A DNA stretch of 63,048 nucleotides, counting the filler, from Reclinomonas americana ATCC 50394 (taxonomy: Eukaryota), in assembly GCA_048213135.1 (NCBI GenBank). It is 13 parts of 13 records of this genome, joined end to end, with 100 filler letters (N's around TTAATTAATTAA, not from the genome) between each part and the next. Parts side by side here need not be neighbours in the genome. Positions count along the whole stretch, not along the records: positions 38,075 to 49,792 come from AFZH01022817.1; 12 more parts are not named here. The stretch is one strand, 5' to 3'. The first letter of the stretch is position 1, and every line of letters begins with the position of its first letter. A model generated the notes under the pieces. The model saw only the letters and a program-made list of their open reading frames with translations, was not told the origin of the DNA and made no database searches. A program made the position numbers and the translations under genes. Positions 5,177-62,043 of this stretch are shown in pieces.

Positions 5177-5276
5177 NNNNNNNNNNNNNNNNNNNNNNNN
5201 NNNNNNNNNNNNNNNNNNNNTTAATTAATTAANNNNNNNNNNNNNNNNNNNNNNNNNNNNNNNNNNNNNNNNNNNN
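5177..5276. other. Artificial contig-joining spacer (N44-TTAATTAATTAA-N44), one of 12
   Basis: Identical 100-bp all-frame-stop linkers also lie at 8911-9010, 15068-15167, 26968-27067, 30410-30509, 37975-38074, 49793-49892, 53948-54047, 55511-55610, 57050-57149, 59669-59768 and 61121-61220. Confidence 0.99.
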
Positions 5277-8910: not shown

Positions 8911-9336
8911 NNNNNNNNNNNNNNNNNNNNNNNNNNNNNNNNNNNNNNNNNNNNTTAATTAATTAANNNNNNNNNNNNNNNNNNNNNNNNNNNNNNNNNN
9001 NNNNNNNNNNGTGTACGATCCCATGTGTGCCGTGCCTGGTTGTCAGAACGGTGGAACCGACGAGGAACGCAAGCACGTCCTCGGTGCTGCCAAGTGGACC
9101 GCCATCGAGCGCAGCGTACGTACTGCCGTGTGCTGCACACTTTGTGTCCATGAATCACAATACTCCTTGTGCAGCTGGGGATTGCCGTCGACGATGATTG
9201 AGTAAGAAAAGAGTACAGTTGCTGACTTGTTGTTGTTGTTAATAAGCAAAACAGTTTTATGTGCCATCTATTTCCTTCCATTGTGCCTCCCATCCTCATC
9301 TACACCTCCCATAACGACAGTTTCGTCGTTGATGAT

Positions 9337-15067: not shown

Positions 15068-15585
15068 NNNNNNNNNNNNNNNNNNNNNNNNNNNNNNNNN
15101 NNNNNNNNNNNTTAATTAATTAANNNNNNNNNNNNNNNNNNNNNNNNNNNNNNNNNNNNNNNNNNNNTGTGTTGTGCTCGTTTGTTAATACGCCTCCTCT
15201 TCTGGCTGACCCAAAGGACGTTGCAGATACGCGAACACAGGCGAGCGCCACTGGAGTAAGAAAGGCACCGCTTCTTTTGGACACGTAGAAATTGGTCGCG
15301 GTGGTTTCCGTTTTTCCTGTTTCTCGTGTGTTGCTCATTTCTACAAACTACTTTGCCCGGCGCGTCCTTCCATTTGTTCCCTTGTGACTCTTTTCTCGCT
15401 TCTGCATTTCTCCCTTTCTCTCTCTGTGTGTGTCTGTGTTTGCGGCAAAATGTAACCGTGTTTTTTTGCCCGAAAAGTTCGGCGCGGTTTGATCCGATTC
15501 GGGACGATTGCAGTACTTTTCTTCATCGAGCGAGAGAGGATCGCCAACTCCACACTCACCCCTCTACCCCTTCGCAACGCACACA

Positions 15586-38074: not shown

Positions 38075-39400
38075 TTTCTATTATTATCGGCGTCGTCGAG
38101 CCTCTCGGCGGTGACCGCCAACGGCGGAGTGCTTGTGCTCTCGAGCGCCTCGCTGCTCAACCTCGACGCGAGCCCGGCCAAGCTCACCGTTGGCGCCTCG
38201 GCGGTGTACTCGCTGCGCGACGTCGTGTACAACATCGCCGGCTCGACGATCAGCGGCACCCGCTCGCCAGCCACGCTCGTCAGCGACGCGATGAGTCTGG
38301 CCGGCCTCGCCATGAACGGCGCGAAGATCACCGGGCTGGCGAGCGGCACGGACAGCGGCGACGCCGCCACGTTCGGCCAACTGTCGACGCGCCTGCCGCT
38401 GACCGGCGGCACGATCTCTGGCGGACTTACTGTCGGCGGCAACCTGACCGTGAACGGGACTGCCACGACTGTGAACAGCTCCATCACGACAGTCGACAAG
38501 TTGCTCGTCGCCACGATCGGAGGCGGCGATCCGGCGCTGGCTGTGCAAGCGAGCGGCACGGCGCCCATCATGGTCGTGACCGACACGGACAGCGATGACA
38601 CCTTGTTCTGCATTGACAATGGAGCGAAGCTCGGGCTTGACACCGAGGATCCCGCGGTCAGCCTCGACATGGGTCTGCGCAAGGACGGCGTAATCCTACC
38701 GCGCGGCACGACGGCGGAGCGGCCGACGGCGGCCGCTGGTCTGATTCGCTTCAACAGCCAGACGAGTAAGTTCGAAGGCTGCACCGACGGCTCGACGTTC
38801 GGCGTAATCGGCGCGCCACCGACCGCCGCCGAGGTCACATTCTCGCCGACCGGCGGTATCAGCAGCACGACGGTGCAGGCTGCCGTCGCGGAGCTCGACT
38901 CGGAAAAACAGCCCCTCAACAGCAAGCTCACGAGCATCGCGGGCAGCACCGGCACGCCGTCGAACGCGACCTTCTTGCGCGGCGACTACACGTGGGCCGC
39001 TGCCGGCGGTGGGGTGCCGTACGCGATCCACATTCGCTTCCGCCTGAACAACGGTGGCTTGGCGGCTAGCGCGATCACGCGGTACGACGGTGGGAGCACG
39101 CTGACCATGGTCACCAGCGCGTCGCCCGCCTCGAACGAGATCGGTTTCCGCCGGCTCAACGCGGGCCAATTCCAGCTGCTGGACGGCGTGAACGGAGCCA
39201 TCTTCGGGCCAGCCAACAGCTGCCTCCTGCGCATCCACATGACGATGATGGCGACACTGGGCTTCGCGAACCAGAGCTTTGGCGCTGGTGAGACCGGCTC
39301 GAACGGCGCGTTCTCGTTCAACACCTACAACAACGGCACGGCGACCGACTACGCCTTCGCGCAGTTCGAGGTGCTCGTCTACTCGGCCGCCATGAGCTGA
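38075..39400 (+). CDS. Tail-fibre/adhesin-like virion protein, 5' truncated
   Basis: YadA-neck-like KITGLASGTDSGDAATFGQL and phage fibre motifs LPLTGGTISG, LPRGTTAERP..GLIRFN, TVQAAVAELDSEKQPL and TFLRGDYTW. Rich in G/S/T/A. Confidence 0.75.
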   Translation, partial: FLLLSASSSLSAVTANGGVLVLSSASLLNLDASPAKLTVGASAVYSLRDVVYNIAGSTISGTRSPATLVSDAMSLAGLAMNGAKITGLASGTDSGDAATFGQLSTRLPLTGGTISGGLTVGGNLTVNGTATTVNSSITTVDKLLVATIGGGDPALAVQASGTAPIMVVTDTDSDDTLFCIDNGAKLGLDTEDPAVSLDMGLRKDGVILPRGTTAERPTAAAGLIRFNSQTSKFEGCTDGSTFGVIGAPPTAAEVTFSPTGGISSTTVQAAVAELDSEKQPLNSKLTSIAGSTGTPSNATFLRGDYTWAAAGGGVPYAIHIRFRLNNGGLAASAITRYDGGSTLTMVTSASPASNEIGFRRLNAGQFQLLDGVNGAIFGPANSCLLRIHMTMMATLGFANQSFGAGETGSNGAFSFNTYNNGTATDYAFAQFEVLVYSAAMS

Positions 39401-40519: not shown

Positions 40520-41122
40520 CTATTGGGGGGCGGCAGACTTTTCCCGAAATTCGTAAATAACTGCCGCGTGTCCGTCATTACTGGCCTCGCGCGCGGCAAG
40601 GGCGGCGGCGAGGTCCGCGACGCGCTGGCCGAGGAGCTGAGACAGAGCGTCGAGCGTGAGGCCGCGGAGAACAGCCGGCTCGGCTTCCCCGGCGCCCGGA
40701 GGGCCGACCGACACGCGGTCTCCGGGCTGAATGCTGAGCGCGCCCTCCAGATGCGGAATTCTGTAGGCGTCGGCGCTTTCGGCCTCGCGGAGCATCCTGA
40801 CCGCTTCGGTCAGGACCGCATCCAGAGCGTTGGCCACTCGGGCCTCGTAGAACAGGTACGTCCCGTAGTGCTGAACCATCTGGCGACTGCCCCGATCGTC
40901 GCCCGGATAGTCGGCTCGCGCTCGAGCCTCGCACTCCCTGCAGTCATAGTTCGAGTGCTTAGGGCATGGGAGCTTGGAGTTGACGATTGACATATGCATG
41001 TAGTGGGATTGGTCGTATACGCGCAACGCGTCTCCGTCCTCGAACCTGAGGCGGGGAGCGTCGCCATCGCGCACCAGAACCACGCATGGGTTTTTGCGCG
41101 TGACCAGGTAGAAGTCGCCCAT
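40520..41122 (-). CDS. Hypothetical viral protein, 200 aa, with a CxxH-x4-CxxC putative Zn site
   Basis: Contains CPKHSNYDCREC. The ATG directly follows copy 1 of the 57-bp repeat. Confidence 0.7.
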   Translation of the reverse strand: MGDFYLVTRKNPCVVLVRDGDAPRLRFEDGDALRVYDQSHYMHMSIVNSKLPCPKHSNYDCRECEARARADYPGDDRGSRQMVQHYGTYLFYEARVANALDAVLTEAVRMLREAESADAYRIPHLEGALSIQPGDRVSVGPPGAGEAEPAVLRGLTLDALSQLLGQRVADLAAALAAREASNDGHAAVIYEFREKSAAPQ

Positions 41123-41126
41123 GTCG

Positions 41127-41183
41127 TGCTATGTGTGTCTTGTAAAAGGCCGGCCAGTTTTATTTAATTCCCGTCGCTCTGCG
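41127..41183 (-). promoter_or_regulatory. 57-bp intergenic direct repeat, copy 1
   Basis: 55/57 identical to 41864-41920. Contains AATTAAATAAAA and the GGCCGGCC palindrome. Ends 4 nt before an ATG. Confidence 0.8.
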
Positions 41184-41224
41184 CCTGCCGCCGGAACAAA
41201 AAGCGCGGCAGCCGCCGAGGGTGG

Positions 41225-41857
41225 CTACTGTACGGGGGGCGCCATAGCGCGCACGATGTCTTTGATCCTGGCGCGGTTCCGTTCCACGAGCGCCAAGACG
41301 CCCCGGCGAATGCCTTGGGCGCACGCGTCCGCTGCTGCGGCACAGAGTGCAAAGTGCGGGTCGCTGATGGGCGCCACCGGTGAGAACCACTCGGCGCCCT
41401 GGCTTCCGCAAACCTCATACTCGGCAGGGTACCCCTTGCGCGGGTAGAGTACCACGTCTTCGTGGCCAGGAAGGCAGTACGAGAACTCTTTCAGCCCCGC
41501 CTCGCGCAGCGCCGCAAGGCCTTTCTCGGCCGCCGTTTCTACGGCATCTAACAGGTGCCCGGAAAGCACGGAGAATGCTTCCAGGACCAGGCTGCCGTCC
41601 ACGCCAATGATCATTCTGCCAGAGGGGGCGGGGTTGGTGGGGTAGACGTACACCATTTTCGACCAAACCCCCGGGCGGTCGGAGAGATCGCGCTCTCTAT
41701 CCGACACCATCTTGAGCCTAGCCGGCTTGTCGGCCCGGCACTCCAGTACCAAATTCGAAAACTTCCAACCCGTGCCAGCCAGTACGACGGTGACAACGAC
41801 TGGCGCGTCCTCGGCCGGCGCTGCGCTGCCGCTTCCAGTGGCGGTGTCGTGCTCCAT
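41225..41857 (-). CDS. Hypothetical viral protein, 210 aa, bracketed by the two 57-bp repeats
   Basis: Clean ORF; the ATG lies 6 nt after repeat copy 2. Confidence 0.7.
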   Translation of the reverse strand: MEHDTATGSGSAAPAEDAPVVVTVVLAGTGWKFSNLVLECRADKPARLKMVSDRERDLSDRPGVWSKMVYVYPTNPAPSGRMIIGVDGSLVLEAFSVLSGHLLDAVETAAEKGLAALREAGLKEFSYCLPGHEDVVLYPRKGYPAEYEVCGSQGAEWFSPVAPISDPHFALCAAAADACAQGIRRGVLALVERNRARIKDIVRAMAPPVQ

Positions 41858-41863
41858 AATCGC

Positions 41864-41920
41864 TGCTATGTGTGTCTCGTAAAAGGCCGGCCAGTTTTAT
41901 TTAATTCCCCTCGCTCTGCG
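41864..41920 (-). promoter_or_regulatory. 57-bp intergenic direct repeat, copy 2
   Basis: See copy 1. It also supplies the TAA stop (41903-41901) of the upstream ORF. Confidence 0.8.
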
Positions 41921-42143
41921 GCCGCGCTTGGAGCGCCTGGCCCATGCGTATCACCAGGTCTGACAGAGTCCTGTCGATCTCCGCTCTCGCCTCGTCCAGG
42001 CCAGCGATTGGCGCAGTGATGTCCTCCAGCGAGTTGTCTCGTCGGCGCAGCAGCGCGTAGCGGCCGTTCGGCAGCTGCAGCAGCCCCCACCGCTCGCCGT
42101 TCTCTCGCTCCAGAACCCAGTCGACGGCTCCGAGTCCGGGCAT
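41901..42143 (-). CDS. Hypothetical viral protein, about 80 aa
   Basis: MPGLGAVDWVLERENGERWGLLQLPNGRYALL...; it fills the gap before the divergent AT-rich spacer. Confidence 0.55.
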   Translation of the reverse strand: MPGLGAVDWVLERENGERWGLLQLPNGRYALLRRRDNSLEDITAPIAGLDEARAEIDRTLSDLVIRMGQALQARPQSEGN

Positions 42144-44195: not shown

Positions 44196-45950
44196 TTAGA
44201 GTCCGAGGAGAGCGTCGAGCTCTTCGACCGACATCGAGTCGAGGACGGCGAGCGCGTCATGAGCGTCCGGAGCGGAGGCGGGCTCGGGCACTTGCACCGG
44301 GGCTTGCTCCGGCCCCGGCACCTGCGTTGGCTTCGGCGGGTGGTAGGCCGGTCGATCGGCCATGGCTACGCCGCTTCCGCTGCCGCTGCCACTGCCGCAC
44401 GTCTCCGGCTCGTCGGCGTCGGTGCGGCAGAACTCGGGGTACATCGTCTCTTCGCGGAACCGCTCAATCTGCGCCTCCAGCGGCTCGAAGACGTACCAGG
44501 CCGTCTTCATCTTCCCGAACGGAAGGTTCTTGCAGAGGGCGCACCGCTGGAGGTCCTTGCCGAACGTCGGAGCCGAAGGGTGGGTGTTTCGGCCCTCCGG
44601 CGAGGTGGCGAACGCCTCGTAGAGGACCGAAGTGGGGACGCGCACGGAGGGGCTGCCGAGGTGGTCCGGCATAGGCTTCGCGAGCGAGAACCAGCGACGA
44701 CCCGCGAGCTCGGTGACGTACGGGAGGCCAGACCCCTCCAGGATCTGGCGGCTCTTCTGACCGCCGATGGATCCGGCTGGCGGGTAGTTGCAATTGACTT
44801 CGAGGCCGCCAGCCGAGAGGACCTTCGACCACCAGCGCTCGAACCCGTGCCAGCCCTCTGGGATCAGCTCGCGAAGCAGCCCCGTCTGGGGCGGCAGAGT
44901 GTTGGCCCAGTCGTCCGAGATCTCGGTCTCGTACAGCCAGCGAGCAAACGGACGCACGTCGCGTTTGAGGGCCTTGAGCGCGGCGATCTGCTCCCGGTTG
45001 AGCACCTCACTCGGCTCGAGGACGAGCCAGCGGCGGGTGCCAGAGCCGGCCGGCAGGATCTTGCGCTCGTTCGAGGCCAAGATCAGGCCGCCGTGCGTGT
45101 TGGCGGTGTACGCCTTCTTGTTCTTCTCGTTGATGTGGCTCGTGCCCTGCGTCACGAGCGCCTTCAGCATCGACGAGACGAGGCTCGAGGAGCCGGCCCA
45201 GCCGACCTCCGTGCCGAACACGAGGTGGCAGCGCTCCTTCCAGGCGGTGAACTGCCCGAGCATCACCTGCTGGTCGACGATCTTCGTGTGGGCCATGCCC
45301 ATGACCTCGGTCATGAGCTCGAAGAGGAAGTCCTTGCCCTCGCCGCCGGCCTTGCCGAACAGCACGACGGCGCTGTTGTGCTTGAACGACGGCTGCTGGA
45401 CGAGCATCGCCAGCCAGGCGCGGAACCAGTTGAAGATCGTCTGGTCCTTCCCCGCGAACGACCAGATGAGGTCGATGGCCGGCTTGGCGTCGGCCACGTC
45501 GACGCCCGGCGCGCAGGCCTGCTCGCGGCCAATCGCGAAGCCCTTGAACTTGTTGTGGAACCCGCGCGCGAGCTTGGAAACCAGGTCCGGGCGCGTCGGC
45601 GGAGGCGCGTACACGACGCCCGGCACGGAACGAGCCTTGGAGCTCTTCGCCCAGATCTTGGCGAACGGGACGTCCACGTCGTCGTCCTCGCGGTTGCGCG
45701 CGAAAGCGACGCGCACGGTGACGTTCGGGGTGTCGCGGATCCACGTGTACTGGGTCTTCGGTTCGAAGTCGACGATGTCTGTGCGGAAGACCTGGCGCGG
45801 GTCGTCCTCGACGATCATCCAGAACTGGTTCATGTACTCCACGATGTGCGGCTCCAGGAACTTGAGCAGCTTTTTCTCGTTGGGGAAGGCGGGGGCGTCG
45901 GCCACCACCTGCTGCAGGCGGGCCTCGAGCGCGGCAAGGGTGAAGGACAT
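44196..45950 (-). CDS. Superfamily 3 helicase (D5/NrS-1 DUF5906-like) without an evident primase domain
   Basis: WLAMLVQQP; Walker A VLFGKAGGEGKD; Walker B region LVFGTE; LKALVT..INEK; motif C LILASN; Arg finger RRWLV. Confidence 0.85.
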   Translation of the reverse strand: MSFTLAALEARLQQVVADAPAFPNEKKLLKFLEPHIVEYMNQFWMIVEDDPRQVFRTDIVDFEPKTQYTWIRDTPNVTVRVAFARNREDDDVDVPFAKIWAKSSKARSVPGVVYAPPPTRPDLVSKLARGFHNKFKGFAIGREQACAPGVDVADAKPAIDLIWSFAGKDQTIFNWFRAWLAMLVQQPSFKHNSAVVLFGKAGGEGKDFLFELMTEVMGMAHTKIVDQQVMLGQFTAWKERCHLVFGTEVGWAGSSSLVSSMLKALVTQGTSHINEKNKKAYTANTHGGLILASNERKILPAGSGTRRWLVLEPSEVLNREQIAALKALKRDVRPFARWLYETEISDDWANTLPPQTGLLRELIPEGWHGFERWWSKVLSAGGLEVNCNYPPAGSIGGQKSRQILEGSGLPYVTELAGRRWFSLAKPMPDHLGSPSVRVPTSVLYEAFATSPEGRNTHPSAPTFGKDLQRCALCKNLPFGKMKTAWYVFEPLEAQIERFREETMYPEFCRTDADEPETCGSGSGSGSGVAMADRPAYHPPKPTQVPGPEQAPVQVPEPASAPDAHDALAVLDSMSVEELDALLGL

Positions 45951-46060: not shown

Positions 46061-47974
46061 ATGGGTATATCGCACATGGCCGCCCGTCGCCCTCTGGACG
46101 GCATCGTCGTCGGAGAGAAGTCGAAGGCGCGTGGACAGGTGCGCACGTACGCTCTTGGCGTTGACCAACTGCAGGAGGCCGGCCTCTCGGTCGCCGACGC
46201 TGCCAAGCGGCTGGCGCAGCCCGGCCAGCGGGTGTCAGCGGTCATCATCTCTCGCGACAGGCGCACATTCCCCACCAGCGCCGTCGCAGCCGATGAGGAC
46301 ATCTCGTTCGCCTCGTACGGCGGCACGGAGGGACGCGAGATCGGCGACGAGAACGACCTCGTCGCGTGGCTGGACGATCACCGCGACGCCATCTCCCAGG
46401 CATATGTGACTGTGTACGAGGCGGGCCGCCGCGTTGGTGGCGAGGGCGATTGCCTGCTGGCGGCGATCGTCGAGTACCTGCGAGAGCACGGTGGCACCCG
46501 CCGCCGCTTGCCAGTTGACGACGAGGACTTCTTCTACGAGGTGCGCAGCGAGCTTGGGCTCGCTCCTGGTCCGATCGACTATGCGGCGGACCTGCCGCGC
46601 ATCGAGAAGTATCTCGGCTGCGGCGTTGAGGTGCTCGACGCGGCGTCGGGTGAGGTGCTCCACGCGCCGTCGGTCGAGTCGCCGCTGCGGGCGGTCGTGC
46701 AGGTCGCTGGCGGCCACGCGACGCTCAGCTATCGCCGCGGCGTCTGCGGCATGGCCTACGCGAAGCGGCCGCTCAAGCTCGTCGCCTGGGCCCAGGGCGT
46801 CTCTGGGCGGGTGTTCGCGTTTGACGGAACCGCCACCATCGAGACCTCCTTCACCGAGCTGTTCTCGCACAAGTACTGCTTCCTCAAGGTGGGGGAGAAG
46901 CTCGCGTCGGTCGAGAGCGCCGACGCCATGCTCCGCGAGGCACACGCGCAGGCGCTCGAGAAGCGTGAGGCCGTGCTCACCGCCGTCGGAGTGGACATGC
47001 TGCGCCTCGGCACGTTCTCCGACGCGCAGGTCGCCCAAAACATCTGGCGTCGCGACTGCCTGGCAGTCACGTTCCGAACGCTGCCGCAGGATCAGGAGCA
47101 CCTCTTCTCGCGGGCGATGGGCGGCGGGTACATCTACGCGGAGCGCGGGTATGAGGGGCCAGCGATCGAAGTTGACTACAGCAGCTTCTACCCGAACCTG
47201 ATGCGCGCGACGTACCGCGTTCCGTACACGGCTGGTCGGTGGGTGGAGGACTTCGAGCCGTACCGCGAGCTGCTCGCCGGCTGCTCGTCTACGGTGGTGA
47301 AGAAGTTCCCCGTCGCGCTGTTCTCCGTGCGGTTCGACGCGAGCGAGCTGCGCGCCATCCACATGCAGCCGCGCGCCATCTACACGTCGTACGAAGTGTG
47401 GCACGCGCTGCGCCGTGGACTGTCGTGCGAGCCGATCTCCGGCGCCCGCCACCTCGTGTGGGAGTACGAGCAGACCGTGCCGCTCCGCACGGCGTTCGGC
47501 CCGTACGTGGACAAGCTGATGCCCCTCAAGGAGGCTGGCCACAGCTTCGCCAAGGGGCTGCTCAACGTGCTGTGGGGCGCGCTGTGTCGCCGCACGCGCC
47601 GCGTCGAGTCACACAACGATGATGATGAGTGGCGGCTCCCTGAGGGTGCGATCATTAACCTCGCCACCCCCATCTCGCAAGATGCGACGGTGTACGAATG
47701 GCGGCTGCCGGAAGACCGCGTGTTCGCTGGTGCAGCGCCACACGTCGGGCCGTTCTTGACCGCGCTGGGTCGCGTGAAGGCGTCGGCGTTCTGCCTCAGT
47801 CTCGGCGGCAAGCTGGAGGCTCGGATCGTTCGGTACCACACTGACGGCGGCACGGTGGCCACCACCGACCCCGAGCGCGTTGCGGCCGCCATCACTCGCG
47901 ACGCCCAACTGAAGGTCAAGCGCATCGGCGAGGTAAAAGTTGGCGCCGCCAACCGCAAGCCGACGTGGGTTTGA
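46061..47974 (+). CDS. Compact protein-primed family B DNA polymerase with an N-terminal OTU-like domain
   Basis: AMGGG, motif A DYSSFYP, TPR1-like YTSYEVWHALRRG, motif B KGLLNVLWG, motif C YHTDG; OTU-like GDCLLAAI...GGHATL. Confidence 0.85.
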   Translation: MGISHMAARRPLDGIVVGEKSKARGQVRTYALGVDQLQEAGLSVADAAKRLAQPGQRVSAVIISRDRRTFPTSAVAADEDISFASYGGTEGREIGDENDLVAWLDDHRDAISQAYVTVYEAGRRVGGEGDCLLAAIVEYLREHGGTRRRLPVDDEDFFYEVRSELGLAPGPIDYAADLPRIEKYLGCGVEVLDAASGEVLHAPSVESPLRAVVQVAGGHATLSYRRGVCGMAYAKRPLKLVAWAQGVSGRVFAFDGTATIETSFTELFSHKYCFLKVGEKLASVESADAMLREAHAQALEKREAVLTAVGVDMLRLGTFSDAQVAQNIWRRDCLAVTFRTLPQDQEHLFSRAMGGGYIYAERGYEGPAIEVDYSSFYPNLMRATYRVPYTAGRWVEDFEPYRELLAGCSSTVVKKFPVALFSVRFDASELRAIHMQPRAIYTSYEVWHALRRGLSCEPISGARHLVWEYEQTVPLRTAFGPYVDKLMPLKEAGHSFAKGLLNVLWGALCRRTRRVESHNDDDEWRLPEGAIINLATPISQDATVYEWRLPEDRVFAGAAPHVGPFLTALGRVKASAFCLSLGGKLEARIVRYHTDGGTVATTDPERVAAAITRDAQLKVKRIGEVKVGAANRKPTWV

Positions 47975-48000
47975 ACACGCCGGCTCGTTTTTTGCATCAC

Positions 48001-48324
48001 ATGCTGTCGGTGCCGGCGAGTGTGCGAGAGGAAGCGCGGCGTGGACTGCGTTGGCGGGCTGAGCTCGGACGCGGTGGCATCGGCCCAGGCCAGGCGACGG
48101 CACGCATGCTGGCGAGTGGCAAGTTGTCGCTCTCGCGGCTCGTGAAGCTGCGGTCGTATCTCGCGCGTCACGCGGTTGACAAGCGAGGGAAGGGATTCGG
48201 CGAGAACGAACCTGGCTTCCCGTCCGCCGGTCGCGTGGCGTGGGCTCTGTGGGGCGGTGACGCCGCGTGGGCGTGGGCCAACGATGTCATCGCTGCCATC
48301 CGCCGCGCCGCTCGTCGCTCTTGA
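48001..48324 (+). CDS. Small conserved phage-like domain protein, 107 aa
   Basis: VREEARRGLRWR..GRGG...RSYLARHAVDK...PSAGRVAWALWGGDA, a pattern I recall from uncharacterised tailed-phage head-module proteins. Confidence 0.7.
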   Translation: MLSVPASVREEARRGLRWRAELGRGGIGPGQATARMLASGKLSLSRLVKLRSYLARHAVDKRGKGFGENEPGFPSAGRVAWALWGGDAAWAWANDVIAAIRRAARRS

Positions 48325-48346
48325 AGCGACGGCCGCTCACCCCACG

Positions 48347-49297
48347 ATGGAGGCGGCACTCGCTCGTCTGATCAAAAACGGCGGCCAGGGGCTTGGCGCT
48401 GAGTCGCTGCGGCAGCTGCTCGCCGATGATGGTGTGAAGGCACCGCTCGCTCGCATCCGAGAGTACCTGCGGTCGCGTTCGCAAGTGAGTGAGACAATGG
48501 GCTCTCTGCGCAATGCGAACGCGCTCGCTCACGCACGAAGGATCGAGGTGTCTGTGCCGAACGAGCTGCACCACGCCGATCTGCTCCAGCTGCCGAAGGA
48601 TCGGCGCATGCAGTATGCGCTGGTGGTGGTCGACGCGGCGTCGCGCTACAAGGCCGTCGAGCCTCTGCCCGACAAGCACCCTCTGGAGGTGGCGGCGGCA
48701 TTCCGCAAGATTTACAAGGAGACGCCGCTCCAGTGGCCAGAGCGGCTCAACGTTGACGGCGGCACTGAGTTTCGTGGCGACGTGGCGAAGCTGTTCGAGA
48801 AGCACAAGACAGAGGTGAGCCGTGGGCTGAGTGGCGACCACCGACACACGGCGTTCGCAGAATCGGCGAACCGTGTGCTTGGTCGGCGGCTGTTTGCCTT
48901 CCAGCATGAGCAAGAGGAGAGGAGCGGCAAGGTGAACCGAGAGTGGGTGAAGCAGCTGCCTGGCGTCGTCGCGGTCATGAATCGGCTCAAAACCCGGCTG
49001 ACGGGACTCGCGCCGGAGAGAGCCGTTGAGCAGAAGACAGTCGCGCTCAAGCCGTCTGTCTCACACTCGCGTGAGCTGGCAAAGGCAAAAAAGGAAGACA
49101 CCTTCCTTATCGCCATCGGCAGCCACGTGCGTATCCCTCTCGACAAGCCGGCAGATGGGGGGCGGTGGAGAGAGACAGACTTGCGCTTCTCTGACAAGAA
49201 AAAGGTGCTCGAGCAGCGCTGGCTGCCTGGACGGCCGCTTGAGTACAGAGTGGAGGGAGACCCTCGCTGGTGGATGAAGGCGCAGCTGCGGTGGTAG
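48347..49297 (+). CDS. Retroviral-like (rve) DDE integrase, Polinton type
   Basis: PNELHHADL, YALVVVDAASRY, LNVDGGTEF and AFAESANR give a D..D-x34-E triad; WVKQLPGVV.VMN...TGLAP; SH3-like C-terminus. Confidence 0.93.
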   Translation: MEAALARLIKNGGQGLGAESLRQLLADDGVKAPLARIREYLRSRSQVSETMGSLRNANALAHARRIEVSVPNELHHADLLQLPKDRRMQYALVVVDAASRYKAVEPLPDKHPLEVAAAFRKIYKETPLQWPERLNVDGGTEFRGDVAKLFEKHKTEVSRGLSGDHRHTAFAESANRVLGRRLFAFQHEQEERSGKVNREWVKQLPGVVAVMNRLKTRLTGLAPERAVEQKTVALKPSVSHSRELAKAKKEDTFLIAIGSHVRIPLDKPADGGRWRETDLRFSDKKKVLEQRWLPGRPLEYRVEGDPRWWMKAQLRW

Positions 49298-49606: not shown

Positions 49607-49892
49607 GGGCACACAGTCGCAACCGGACAACCCCAACCGCGGCTAAAGCAGAAGACAACACCCAGGGCGCGGCTGAAGCAGTACGGCTGAAGCAGTAGGA
49701 AGCGGAGAAGAGGGAGTTGTCCGGTAGCCGCTTTTTTCGGGCGGCGCGCGGCCTCCGGCGGTGTGGCGCTTGCTGCTGCCTCGGGTGGGGGGNNNNNNNN
49801 NNNNNNNNNNNNNNNNNNNNNNNNNNNNNNNNNNNNTTAATTAATTAANNNNNNNNNNNNNNNNNNNNNNNNNNNNNNNNNNNNNNNNNNNN

Positions 49893-53946: not shown

Positions 53947-54233
53947 CNNNNNNNNNNNNNNNNNNNNNNNNNNNNNNNNNNNNNNNNNNNNTTAATTAAT
54001 TAANNNNNNNNNNNNNNNNNNNNNNNNNNNNNNNNNNNNNNNNNNNNCCTCTCCTCTCCTCTCCTCTCCTCTCCTCTCCCTCTCCTCCCTTCTCCTCTCC
54101 CTCTCCCTCTCCACTTCCGTTTCCCTCTCCCTCCTCTCCTCTCCCTCTCCCTCTCCCACTCCCTCTCTCCTCTCCATTTCCCTTTCCCTTTATCTCCCTC
54201 TTCCCTGCCCCTCTCTCATTTGTTCACCTCCAG

Positions 54234-55060: not shown

Positions 55061-55610
55061 AGCTGCGGGGTTGGTGGGGAAAGTGATGTCGCGTCGCACC
55101 TTGAGGCGAGCGGGGGTAATGTTGAGTGTGGATGATTCGCATAACCTCACCTTTCGCCGGTTTCCTCCTGCTGTCTCGTGCTTCAACTCTTGTCATGTGT
55201 TTGCTTTACCTCCAGCAGATTTGGGTATCTAATGATGCTCGTTTCGAGCACCTCTTGCCTCTTTCGTTCATCGCTTCTCCTTTTCTCGATTTTGAATCGT
55301 CTCGCAGCACATCGCCCTCTCCGCCATGCTTTCTCGCACCCGCTTTCCGTTTTTTCTTGTTCATTCCTCCACGTTTGTTCTCTCTTCTCATCTGCCCCTT
55401 GTTTCCTTCCCATTGCTTTCCTGCCCCTCTCTTCTCCCTCCCCCCTCTCTTCCCCTCTCTTCCCCCTCTCTTCTCCCTCTCTTCTCCCTCTCTTCCCCCT
55501 CTCTTCCCCCNNNNNNNNNNNNNNNNNNNNNNNNNNNNNNNNNNNNNNNNNNNNTTAATTAATTAANNNNNNNNNNNNNNNNNNNNNNNNNNNNNNNNNN
55601 NNNNNNNNNN

Positions 55611-57049: not shown

Positions 57050-57149
57050 NNNNNNNNNNNNNNNNNNNNNNNNNNNNNNNNNNNNNNNNNNNNTTAATTA
57101 ATTAANNNNNNNNNNNNNNNNNNNNNNNNNNNNNNNNNNNNNNNNNNNN

Positions 57150-59620: not shown

Positions 59621-59768
59621 AGCGCGAGAAAGGAAACGAAGAAAAGAAGAGAGAGAGAGACAAATACANNNNNNNNNNNNNNNNNNNNNNNNNNNNNNNN
59701 NNNNNNNNNNNNTTAATTAATTAANNNNNNNNNNNNNNNNNNNNNNNNNNNNNNNNNNNNNNNNNNNN

Positions 59769-60702: not shown

Positions 60703-62043
60703 GCGGCGGTCAAGATCAGTAATCACAGTACACAGGTCGATGTGAGGGAAACGAGCAAAGAAAGGGATGGAGTGAGAAAGCAAAGGGGGAGAAGAAGTGG
60801 GAAGAGAACATAGCGCGCGCGAGAGAGAGAGAGAGTGCGCACGTCAGCAAGAAAGAGAGAAAAGAAATGCAGCCAATGCGTTTGCAAGAGAGGGAGAGAG
60901 AGACGGAGCAAGAGAAACAAGAGAAAGCAAAAGTGCTGAGTAAGAGAGAGAAAAACAATGTGACCAAAGTGTGAGCAAAAGTAGCAAAGTGCGAGAGAGG
61001 AAAGCACAGTGTGACAAAAGTGTAAGGAGAGAGAGAGAGAGAGAGAAAGAGAGAGGCAGAAAGAGGGAGAGAGACAGAGCATGAAAGAGAGAACAAAGTG
61101 CTGAGGAAGAAAGATAACAGNNNNNNNNNNNNNNNNNNNNNNNNNNNNNNNNNNNNNNNNNNNNTTAATTAATTAANNNNNNNNNNNNNNNNNNNNNNNN
61201 NNNNNNNNNNNNNNNNNNNNAAGGCGAAAGAATGCCAAAAGGGAGGGAGCGGGAGGGGGGATAGGTTTGAGAAGAGAGCAGTGGCGCGTGCATTCACACA
61301 TGAGCGAGAGAGAGAGTGTGTGTGTGTGGAAAAACTGACACAGTTGTATACAGATGATTGTTTCGTGCGTGTGGCACGCAGTGTGCTGGAGTAGTCACAT
61401 GCAGGGAGAGAGGGAGCGATCAAGAGCGCGAATGCGAGTCCCCCCGGTCGATACTTGTCCCGCGCGTTAGCGTCGACCGCCTTCCACGCTGGCAGAGTGC
61501 ACGTCGCCGTCTTACCTGCAATGTGCGTGTACATGCATGTAAGCATGCGGCGTTAGGAAGGGGAAGACGAAGTGGAAGTGTTTCGGGCCAATGTGATATC
61601 TGGGTTTAGGTTCGGAAGGAGATGAAAGAACTGGAAGAGGAAGAACGGGAAGAAGGGAAAGAGGAGGAAGGGAGGGCAAGGGAAGTGGTTGAGGGGAGGG
61701 AGGAAGTAAGAGGGAAGGGAGAGAAAGAGAGAAGGGGATGGGAGCAGGAACCGGGAGGAGTCGATGGGGATGTGGGAACTGGAAGAATGGGGGGAAAAGA
61801 AGGGAGGGCAAGGGGAGTGGTTGAGGGGAGGGAGGGAGGCAAAGCACGAAGAAGAGTTTATGAAGAATACGACGGAATCGGTTTTCGTACAAAAAAGTAA
61901 TCACGCGAACTTGGTCTTCACTTCACGCCTCACGACAGCATGAGAGAGAGTCGGGTACGACTCTCTGCACACTGCACACAAAAGCGGTGGCAAAAACATG
62001 GGCCCGCTCGTGTCGGCGTCCGAATGGTTGCCGCGCTCAGGAT

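Follow-up and report, generated by a model that had tools for sequence, protein, structure and literature searches.

Eukaryotic DNA polymerases of family B that use protein priming (pPolBs) possess an N-terminal domain resembling terminal proteins (D1) as well as a vOTU protease (D2), which has been proposed to sever the link between priming domain and polymerase (Krupovic et al. 2024, PMC11161782). For mavirus, the same article describes a pPolB of the type terminal protein (TP)-vOTU-PALM, with just an exonuclease remnant and with a separate superfamily 3 helicase (S3H); its motif C is without the first Asp, other polymerases without this residue still being catalytically active (PMC11161782). 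According to these authors the loss of the exonuclease goes along with the acquisition of an S3H helicase that has its own gene, low fidelity is expected for the mavirus enzyme, and the enzyme is treated as a replicative polymerase (PMC11161782). In endogenous mavirus-like elements of low GC content, the module for replication and integration consists of primase/helicase, pPolB and an rve-type integrase (rve-INT) (Hackl et al. 2021, PMC8547959). Here we describe a polymerase gene in a stretch of 63,048 nt from Reclinomonas americana ATCC 50394 (assembly GCA_048213135.1), which we call the window. With a probability of roughly 0.8 we consider this gene to encode a mavirus-type virophage pPolB, which constitutes the known replication/integration module jointly with the genes beside it for a D5-like S3H helicase and an rve integrase.

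The polymerase open reading frame (ORF; 46061..47974, plus strand) encodes 637 amino acids (aa), and the GC content at third codon positions (GC3) is 0.86 in this frame versus 0.68 in the long antisense ORF. The original prediction referred to positions 46740-47974, that is aa 227-637 of the ORF, and described a minimal pPolB without proofreading domain in which D372, the motif A Tyr, K498 and D595 are retained next to unusual forms of motifs B and C; on checking the ORF translation we found all of these where claimed. Motif A, DYSSFYP (D372, Y377; 47174..47194, plus strand), pairs with DVNSLYP of the phi29 enzyme, D372 sits in IEVDYSSFYPNL, and the motif A Tyr, Y377, stands at the position of the corresponding Tyr of phi29. 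Motif B, KGLLNVLWG (K498, W505, G506; aa 498-506; 47552..47578, plus strand), pairs with phi29 KLMLNSLYG, and motif C, YHTDG (H593, D595; aa 592-596; 47834..47848, plus strand), with YCDTDS. The C-terminal tail is indeed short, the protein ending 42 aa past D595. Further upstream we found an OTU-like Cys (C131 in GEGDCLL) and His (H219 in GGHATL), the latter being separated by 153 aa from D372 and by 136 aa from G355 of the YxGG-like motif.

Relatives of this protein, the query in what follows, were collected by an exhaustive HMMER search of 1.84 billion representatives (clusters at 50% identity). At E<=1e-3 the search retrieved 458 representatives, of which 90 also passed E<=1e-10; the best had E 2.1e-44 and 34% identity. 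When the 40 best relatives were compared to the Pfam family DNA_pol_B_2, 21 matched at E<=0.01 and 15 reached the curated cut-off. For alignment A1 (n=104) the query was combined with 103 hits of >=560 aa among the best 150 of the 458; shorter, mostly fragmentary hits and one long hit, P0101, were omitted. Six residues are invariant in all 104 sequences, namely C131, D372, K498, G506, R571 and D595, and the query has all six, while H219 is kept in 103/104. A family profile built on these 104 full-length sequences could be aligned with phi29 DNA polymerase (E 2.8e-9), pairing SRGG with YRGG, DxxSxYP with DVNSLYP (D249), KxxLNxLWG with KLMLNSLYG (K383) and HTDG with DTDS (D456/D458). The spacing between motifs A and B is 126 versus 134 in phi29, and that between B and C 97 versus 75.

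The alignment also puts the peculiarities of the gene in a different light. HTDG in motif C, the Trp in motif B and the short C-terminus had been taken as oddities of this gene, but the first position of motif C is H in 95 of the 104 sequences and D in none (query H593), the fourth position is G in 81 and S in 20 (query G596), and motif B has the Trp in 97/104 (query W505). Beyond the motif C Asp the tail has a median length of 43 aa (range 34-97; query 42), and the distance from the OTU His to the motif A Asp has a median of 156 aa (134-190, n=103; query 153). Judged from these aligned sequences, HTDG, LWG and the short C-terminus are traits of the whole family and not peculiar to the query gene.

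An AlphaFold2 model built with the alignment had a predicted local distance difference test score (pLDDT) of 84.5 and a predicted template-modelling (TM) score (pTM) of 0.79; prediction from the single sequence (pLDDT 34.6) was of no use. The top match of the model in BFVD is the polymerase of Cafeteriavirus-dependent mavirus (A0A1L4BK92, 617 aa), which aligns end to end with E 6.9e-30 (TM 0.59/0.61, 671 alignment columns), the next hit following at 8.5e-17. Besides the end-to-end structural match and the similar length (617 vs 637 aa), the two proteins have in common the N-terminal domain, the vOTU Cys and His, the exonuclease remnant and the absence of the first motif C Asp, and in both cases the module also contains an S3H helicase as a gene of its own and an rve integrase. 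They differ in sequence, with an identity of 16% in the structural alignment.

To our knowledge phi29 DNA polymerase (PDB 1XHX, 2PYJ) is the only DNA polymerase of family B (PolB) with protein priming that has a solved structure. Among solved structures it is also the leading match of the model (Foldseek E 4.9e-8; VIA-align Z 20.4-21.1, root-mean-square deviation (rmsd) 3.6-3.7, 328-333 aligned residues), while other, RNA-primed PolBs reach a Z of 12 at most. The aligned ranges are 235-637 of the model and 4-503 of the 575 residues of phi29. The two enzymes agree in the fold of the polymerase domain and in the YxGG-like motif as well as motifs A to C; the differences lie in motif C (HTDG vs DTDS), in motif B (Trp vs Tyr) and in the terminal protein, which is separate in phi29 whereas the query fuses a candidate priming domain and a protease to its N-terminus. 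The polymerase domain (aa ~317-637; 47009..47971, plus strand) is co-linear with phi29 ~190-503, in the predicted model including stretches of TPR1 and TPR2, and modelled strands at 514-548 follow motif B at the place of TPR2. The model thereby assigns the enzyme to the protein-primed subtype of PolB, with room for both TPR1 and TPR2.

Two parts of the phi29 enzyme have no full counterpart in this model. The first is the exonuclease domain, at the place of which we find a remnant of a few strands and a long helix without catalytic acids (aa ~235-316, end approximate; 46763..47008, plus strand). From the start of the phi29-aligned part to motif A the query has 137 residues compared to 245 in phi29, about 108 fewer, and neither the ExoII pattern N..(.)[FY]D nor the ExoIII pattern Y...D has a regex match anywhere in the polymerase. 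The triplet 'D.E' occurs five times, but never within the first strands of aa 235-316; the occurrence nearest to this region, D344-Q-E346, is placed by the model inside a polymerase-domain helix (H343-352). Across query coordinates 220-340 the best-conserved acidic column of the family is that of R339 (D/E in 83/104), followed by that of D255 (76/104). The structural alignment with phi29 (model 235-637, phi29 4-503) thus agrees with the claimed absence of a proofreading domain, in that it contains neither a complete exonuclease domain nor its catalytic acids, and both sequence and model support a pPolB without a functional exonuclease domain. The second missing part is the thumb. Residue 637 of the model pairs with phi29 503, so the protein stops where phi29 has ~72 residues more, which we take to include the thumb, and the polymerase as modelled is without one. 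The gene therefore retains a pPolB core, yet it does not encode a complete enzyme of the phi29 type.

Ahead of the remnant the model contains two further domains. The N-terminal one (aa ~12-120; 46094..46420, plus strand) is a candidate terminal-protein (D1) domain with strands at 27-33, 56-64 and 111-120 and helices at 34-51 and 97-106 as assigned by DSSP (pLDDT 31-83) and with a loop at aa 66-95 that is predicted to be disordered; its position agrees with D1 of mavirus pPolB (PMC11161782). Within this loop, at aa 85-91 (window about 46313-46333), most family members have G-W-R-S/T-G, with Ser in 61/104 and Thr in 11/104, and the query has T89 without the Trp. From the sequences the hydroxyl beside the Gly may be regarded as a candidate priming residue, although it differs in position from the published linking residue (PMC11161782). 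The second domain (aa ~125-231; 46433..46753, plus strand) is a cysteine protease domain of vOTU-like type with Cys131 at 46451-46453 and His219 at 46715-46717. Of the 50 matches listed by a VIA-align search across the PDB, 22 cover model residues ~125-231, and 19 of these 22 are named OTU or Otu; the best is human OTUD2 (4boz_A, Z 7.7, rmsd 2.9, 94 aligned), and yeast Otu2 and nairovirus and tymovirus proteases are among the others. C131 opens the first helix (131-143) and H219 the fourth OTU strand (219-222) of the model, the same elements in which the published catalytic pair is located (Cys in helix 1, His in strand 4; PMC11161782). The OTU domain was not detected by Pfam or by a PDB sequence profile search up to E 10, and an ESM Atlas search with residues 112-232 gave no usable match (best score 0.78).

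Two genes of the module lie near the polymerase. Divergently oriented to it lies a D5-like superfamily 3 helicase of 584 aa (44196..45950, minus strand), with matches to Pfam DUF5906 (1e-16) and phrog_1156 (4.6e-29) and with the invariants G204, K205, E247, N293 and R306. Downstream follows an rve-type integrase (48176..49297, plus strand; ORF from TTG 48176, first ATG 48284) whose match to Pfam rve, 1.8e-6 with 28.6 bits, is short of the cut-off of 32.6, and whose residues D99, D158 and E193 do not vary across the alignment. As a sample of genomic contexts we used nine IMG/VR contigs with family members (L001-L009; 107 ORFs of >=110 aa). A DUF5906 helicase is present in eight of the nine, in line with the predicted co-occurrence with SF3 helicases that the adjacent gene already displays here, and an rve integrase likewise in eight. 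The best PHROG of all eight helicases beside related polymerases is phrog_1156, as for the helicase of the window, and by tblastn our integrase matches the integrases next to the polymerase in 8/9 loci with E 2e-19 to 6e-34 and 27-34% identity. Pfam virophage major capsid protein domains were found in 3/9 loci, the Sputnik minor capsid domain in 1/9 and the Pox_A32 packaging ATPase in 4/9, so that 7/9 have at least one virophage morphogenesis gene. The gene order is not the same: on our contig it reads helicase (-), polymerase (+), small ORF (+), integrase (+), whereas in six loci (L002, L003, L004, L005, L006 and L008) the integrase is directly upstream of the polymerase on the opposite strand. 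The mavirus-like loci further differ in their lower GC content, and in that no capsid genes were found on our contig. The integrase of the window has no C-terminal chromodomain, a domain that Pfam finds in 5/8 integrases beside related polymerases. The small ORF of 119 aa (window 47965-48324, plus strand) shares sequence with both the end of the polymerase gene, including its stop, and the integrase ORF. Its match is phrog_2859, of unknown function (E 5.9e-22), while Pfam gave no hit and the nine related virophage loci no counterpart.

The window joins 13 contigs by 12 artificial linkers (44 N, TTAATTAATTAA, 44 N), located at 5177-5276, 8911-9010, 15068-15167, 26968-27067, 30410-30509, 37975-38074, 49793-49892, 53948-54047, 55511-55610, 57050-57149, 59669-59768 and 61121-61220. 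ORFs or synteny read across a linker are artefacts, so the real context of the polymerase gene is restricted to the linker-bounded contig at 38075..49792 (11,718 nt). Its GC content of 66% compares with 0.52-0.60 in the remaining 12 contigs, and no second copy of its genes or DNA was found elsewhere in the window. The left edge of the contig cuts through the first ORF (38075-39400, plus strand, 441 aa seen), which is open at this edge, so that the element extends beyond the contig. This ORF looks like a fibre protein; its matches to YadA_stalk (E 0.0015) and to PHROGs of phage structural proteins (2.6e-5 and 4e-5) are weak. Terminal inverted repeats were not found at the ends of the contig, and the element on it is probably incomplete. 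Two copies of a 62-nt direct repeat (94% identical; window 41127-41188 and 41864-41925) lie directly upstream of the minus-strand ORFs 40520-41122 and 41225-41857. Exact occurrences of its AT-rich core TTTTATTTAATT in the window are confined to these two sites, and in a shuffle control none of 100 shuffles reached 3 matches at <=2 mismatches; the repeat may serve both ORFs as a promoter. Ahead of the polymerase start there is a comparable AT-rich patch, TCTCTAACAAAAAATTATTTTA.

Several observations weigh against a mavirus-type virophage as the source of the gene. The query alone has no Pfam, PHROG or PDB sequence match, and the family assignment therefore rests on relatives and fold; PF03175 (DNA_pol_B_2) did not match it even at E<=1, and hence below the curated cut-off, and a word-indexed homologue search with either the query protein or alignment A1 as input returned nothing useful. 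The TP-like fold of the N-terminal domain was not confirmed, the sole structural match (Z 6.4) being an unrelated chain, and no linking residue for protein priming could be assigned. At 6 of 24 near-invariant positions the query departs from the family (N129G, E345Q, G419A, Y421F, N463R and G615A), E345Q perhaps being an alignment slip with E346 adjacent. A FastTree tree built from 114 sequences places the query together with P0001 and P0002 (support 0.999) within a 17-member clade (support 0.918) that contains none of the nine virophage loci, and no genomic context was found for these nearest relatives in viral contigs or in metagenome scans with A3 and P0002. In the viral contigs the A3 pattern led to none beyond those already known from the nine-locus set and P0049 alone had no match; alignments A1 and A5 varied too much to serve in pattern scans. 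The GC content of 66% contrasts with 27-38% in the nine virophage loci. Finally, capsid, ATPase and protease genes were not found among the 9-10 other ORFs of the contig, whose left end is cut, by Pfam, PHROGs and tblastn against the nine loci.

Some of these points would suit a molecular fossil, an endogenous copy in a host genome that is inactive or in decay: the substitutions at near-invariant positions, the missing capsid genes, and a GC content far from that of free virophage relatives, as expected from a long stay in a GC-rich host. We consider this unlikely, as the ORF is unbroken over 637 aa with all six invariant residues present, the helicase and the integrase next door are intact and keep their catalytic invariants, and a GC3 of 0.86-0.91 corresponds to a coding-type codon pattern. 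It would be equally surprising to us if the contig were unrelated to virophages, be it a contaminant from a GC-rich bacterium, phage or plasmid, or a polinton-like virus or linear plasmid with the same type of polymerase. Such an origin could account for an isolated contig of deviating GC content among linker-joined contigs, for the weak phage matches of the fibre-like ORF 38075-39400 and the phrog_2859 match (5.9e-22) of ORF 47965-48324, for the matches of the helicase to phage primase PHROGs, and for the lack of a capsid gene and of a known context for the closest polymerase relatives. Against it stand the mavirus polymerase as best structural match, the integrase with 27-34% identity to those beside the polymerase in eight of nine virophage-type loci, and the PHROG shared by all eight helicases of these loci. 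Named family members belong to Rhizophagus irregularis and to a transcriptome of Salpingoeca kvevrii, and Atlas clusters of the family are labelled Eukaryota or Preplasmiviricota, whereas a pattern scan of limited sensitivity through 185,579 prokaryotic genomes gave 19 pattern matches, none of which encodes a relative, and tblastn of the query against 50,697 phage records gave no match. On this evidence we retain the mavirus-type assignment and regard the query as a divergent, GC-rich member of the mavirus-type polymerases; a GC-rich lineage of the helicase-pPolB-integrase module appears to be unusual. The element itself may be a complete virophage, an endogenous remnant or a related element without capsid.

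Two other architectures are close to the one found here. The pPolBs of polintons (Mavericks), of the type TP-vOTU-Exo-PALM, also have a TP-like domain and a vOTU ahead of the polymerase and reside in elements with an rve integrase, but their length is roughly double and their exonuclease domain is complete (PMC11161782). A separate S3H partner is absent from polintons. Fusions of pPolB with a superfamily 1 helicase (pPolB-S1H, 'Tlr1-like helicases') in polinton-like viruses and transpovirons share with the query the vOTU and the protein-primed palm, the loss of the exonuclease, the missing first motif C Asp and the gain of a helicase (PMC11161782). Their helicase is fused, however, whereas that of the query is a separate, divergently oriented gene of superfamily 3 (D5-like). 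The combination present in the window is thus that of mavirus pPolB, and as this architecture was already described in 2024 it does not represent a new replication mode (PMC11161782). Of the original prediction, the absence of the exonuclease and the partnership with a helicase hold, and low fidelity agrees with the published expectation for the mavirus enzyme; the suggestion of a novel mode unlike that of phi29 or adenovirus was anticipated by the same publication (PMC11161782).

From homology and the literature we infer, for every step, how such an element might replicate. A hydroxyl residue of the N-terminal domain would prime synthesis in the active site with D372, D595 and K498, and the polymerase core would add the first and all later nucleotides without proofreading. 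The vOTU (C131/H219) would cut off the priming domain, the S3H helicase, encoded by its own gene, would unwind the DNA, and the integrase would insert the genome into the host chromosome. We propose that a polymerase without exonuclease domain and thumb relies on the S3H helicase for unwinding. In phi29 the DNA runs through tunnels around TPR2 that are walled by the exonuclease domain and the thumb and that are the basis of processivity and strand displacement. The loss of both could also be taken to mean that the enzyme acts mainly as a protein-priming initiator and leaves elongation to the helicase and a host or giant-virus polymerase, as the original prediction had it, since it is these parts that, with TPR2, close the tunnels of phi29, and since a helicase gene adjoins here and is present in 8/9 related loci. 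We found no indication of such a restricted role and judge it very unlikely: the six invariant residues are kept, the whole palm, fingers and TPR region is retained, co-linear with phi29 from the palm to the C-terminus and conserved over 104 sequences, and the contig showed no further polymerase gene. Moreover, we know of no pPolB system that hands over to another polymerase. The mavirus enzyme, too, is viewed as the replicative polymerase (PMC11161782).

The missing thumb is not confined to the query, as all 104 aligned members are without a polypeptide for it, judged from the tails in A1 and from the structural match to phi29. The word 'thumb' has 0 occurrences in the main text of the 2024 article, supplements aside (PMC11161782), and a full-text literature search found no discussion of thumb loss in virophage polymerases. 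A tentative proposal, which we consider possible but less likely than not, is that the whole mavirus-type family has lost exonuclease and thumb and would thus be without the intrinsic processivity and strand displacement of the phi29 type, so that polymerase and S3H helicase would form an obligate replisome, in which the vOTU or the priming domain might hold the DNA after self-cleavage. The joint loss of exonuclease and thumb would then mechanically explain the constant company of a helicase in this family.

For the assembly, the contig means that a possible virophage-like element or contaminant is present among the unplaced contigs. For the family, the gene adds a very divergent and unusually GC-rich lineage to the mavirus-type polymerases, whose minimal architecture is uniform: at least 458 clusters at 50% identity share the candidate priming domain, the protease and a core without proofreading or thumb. 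The family is thereby a test case for the minimum that a phi29-type polymerase needs for genome replication with a separate helicase, and for the question of whether a fused vOTU releases the terminal protein.

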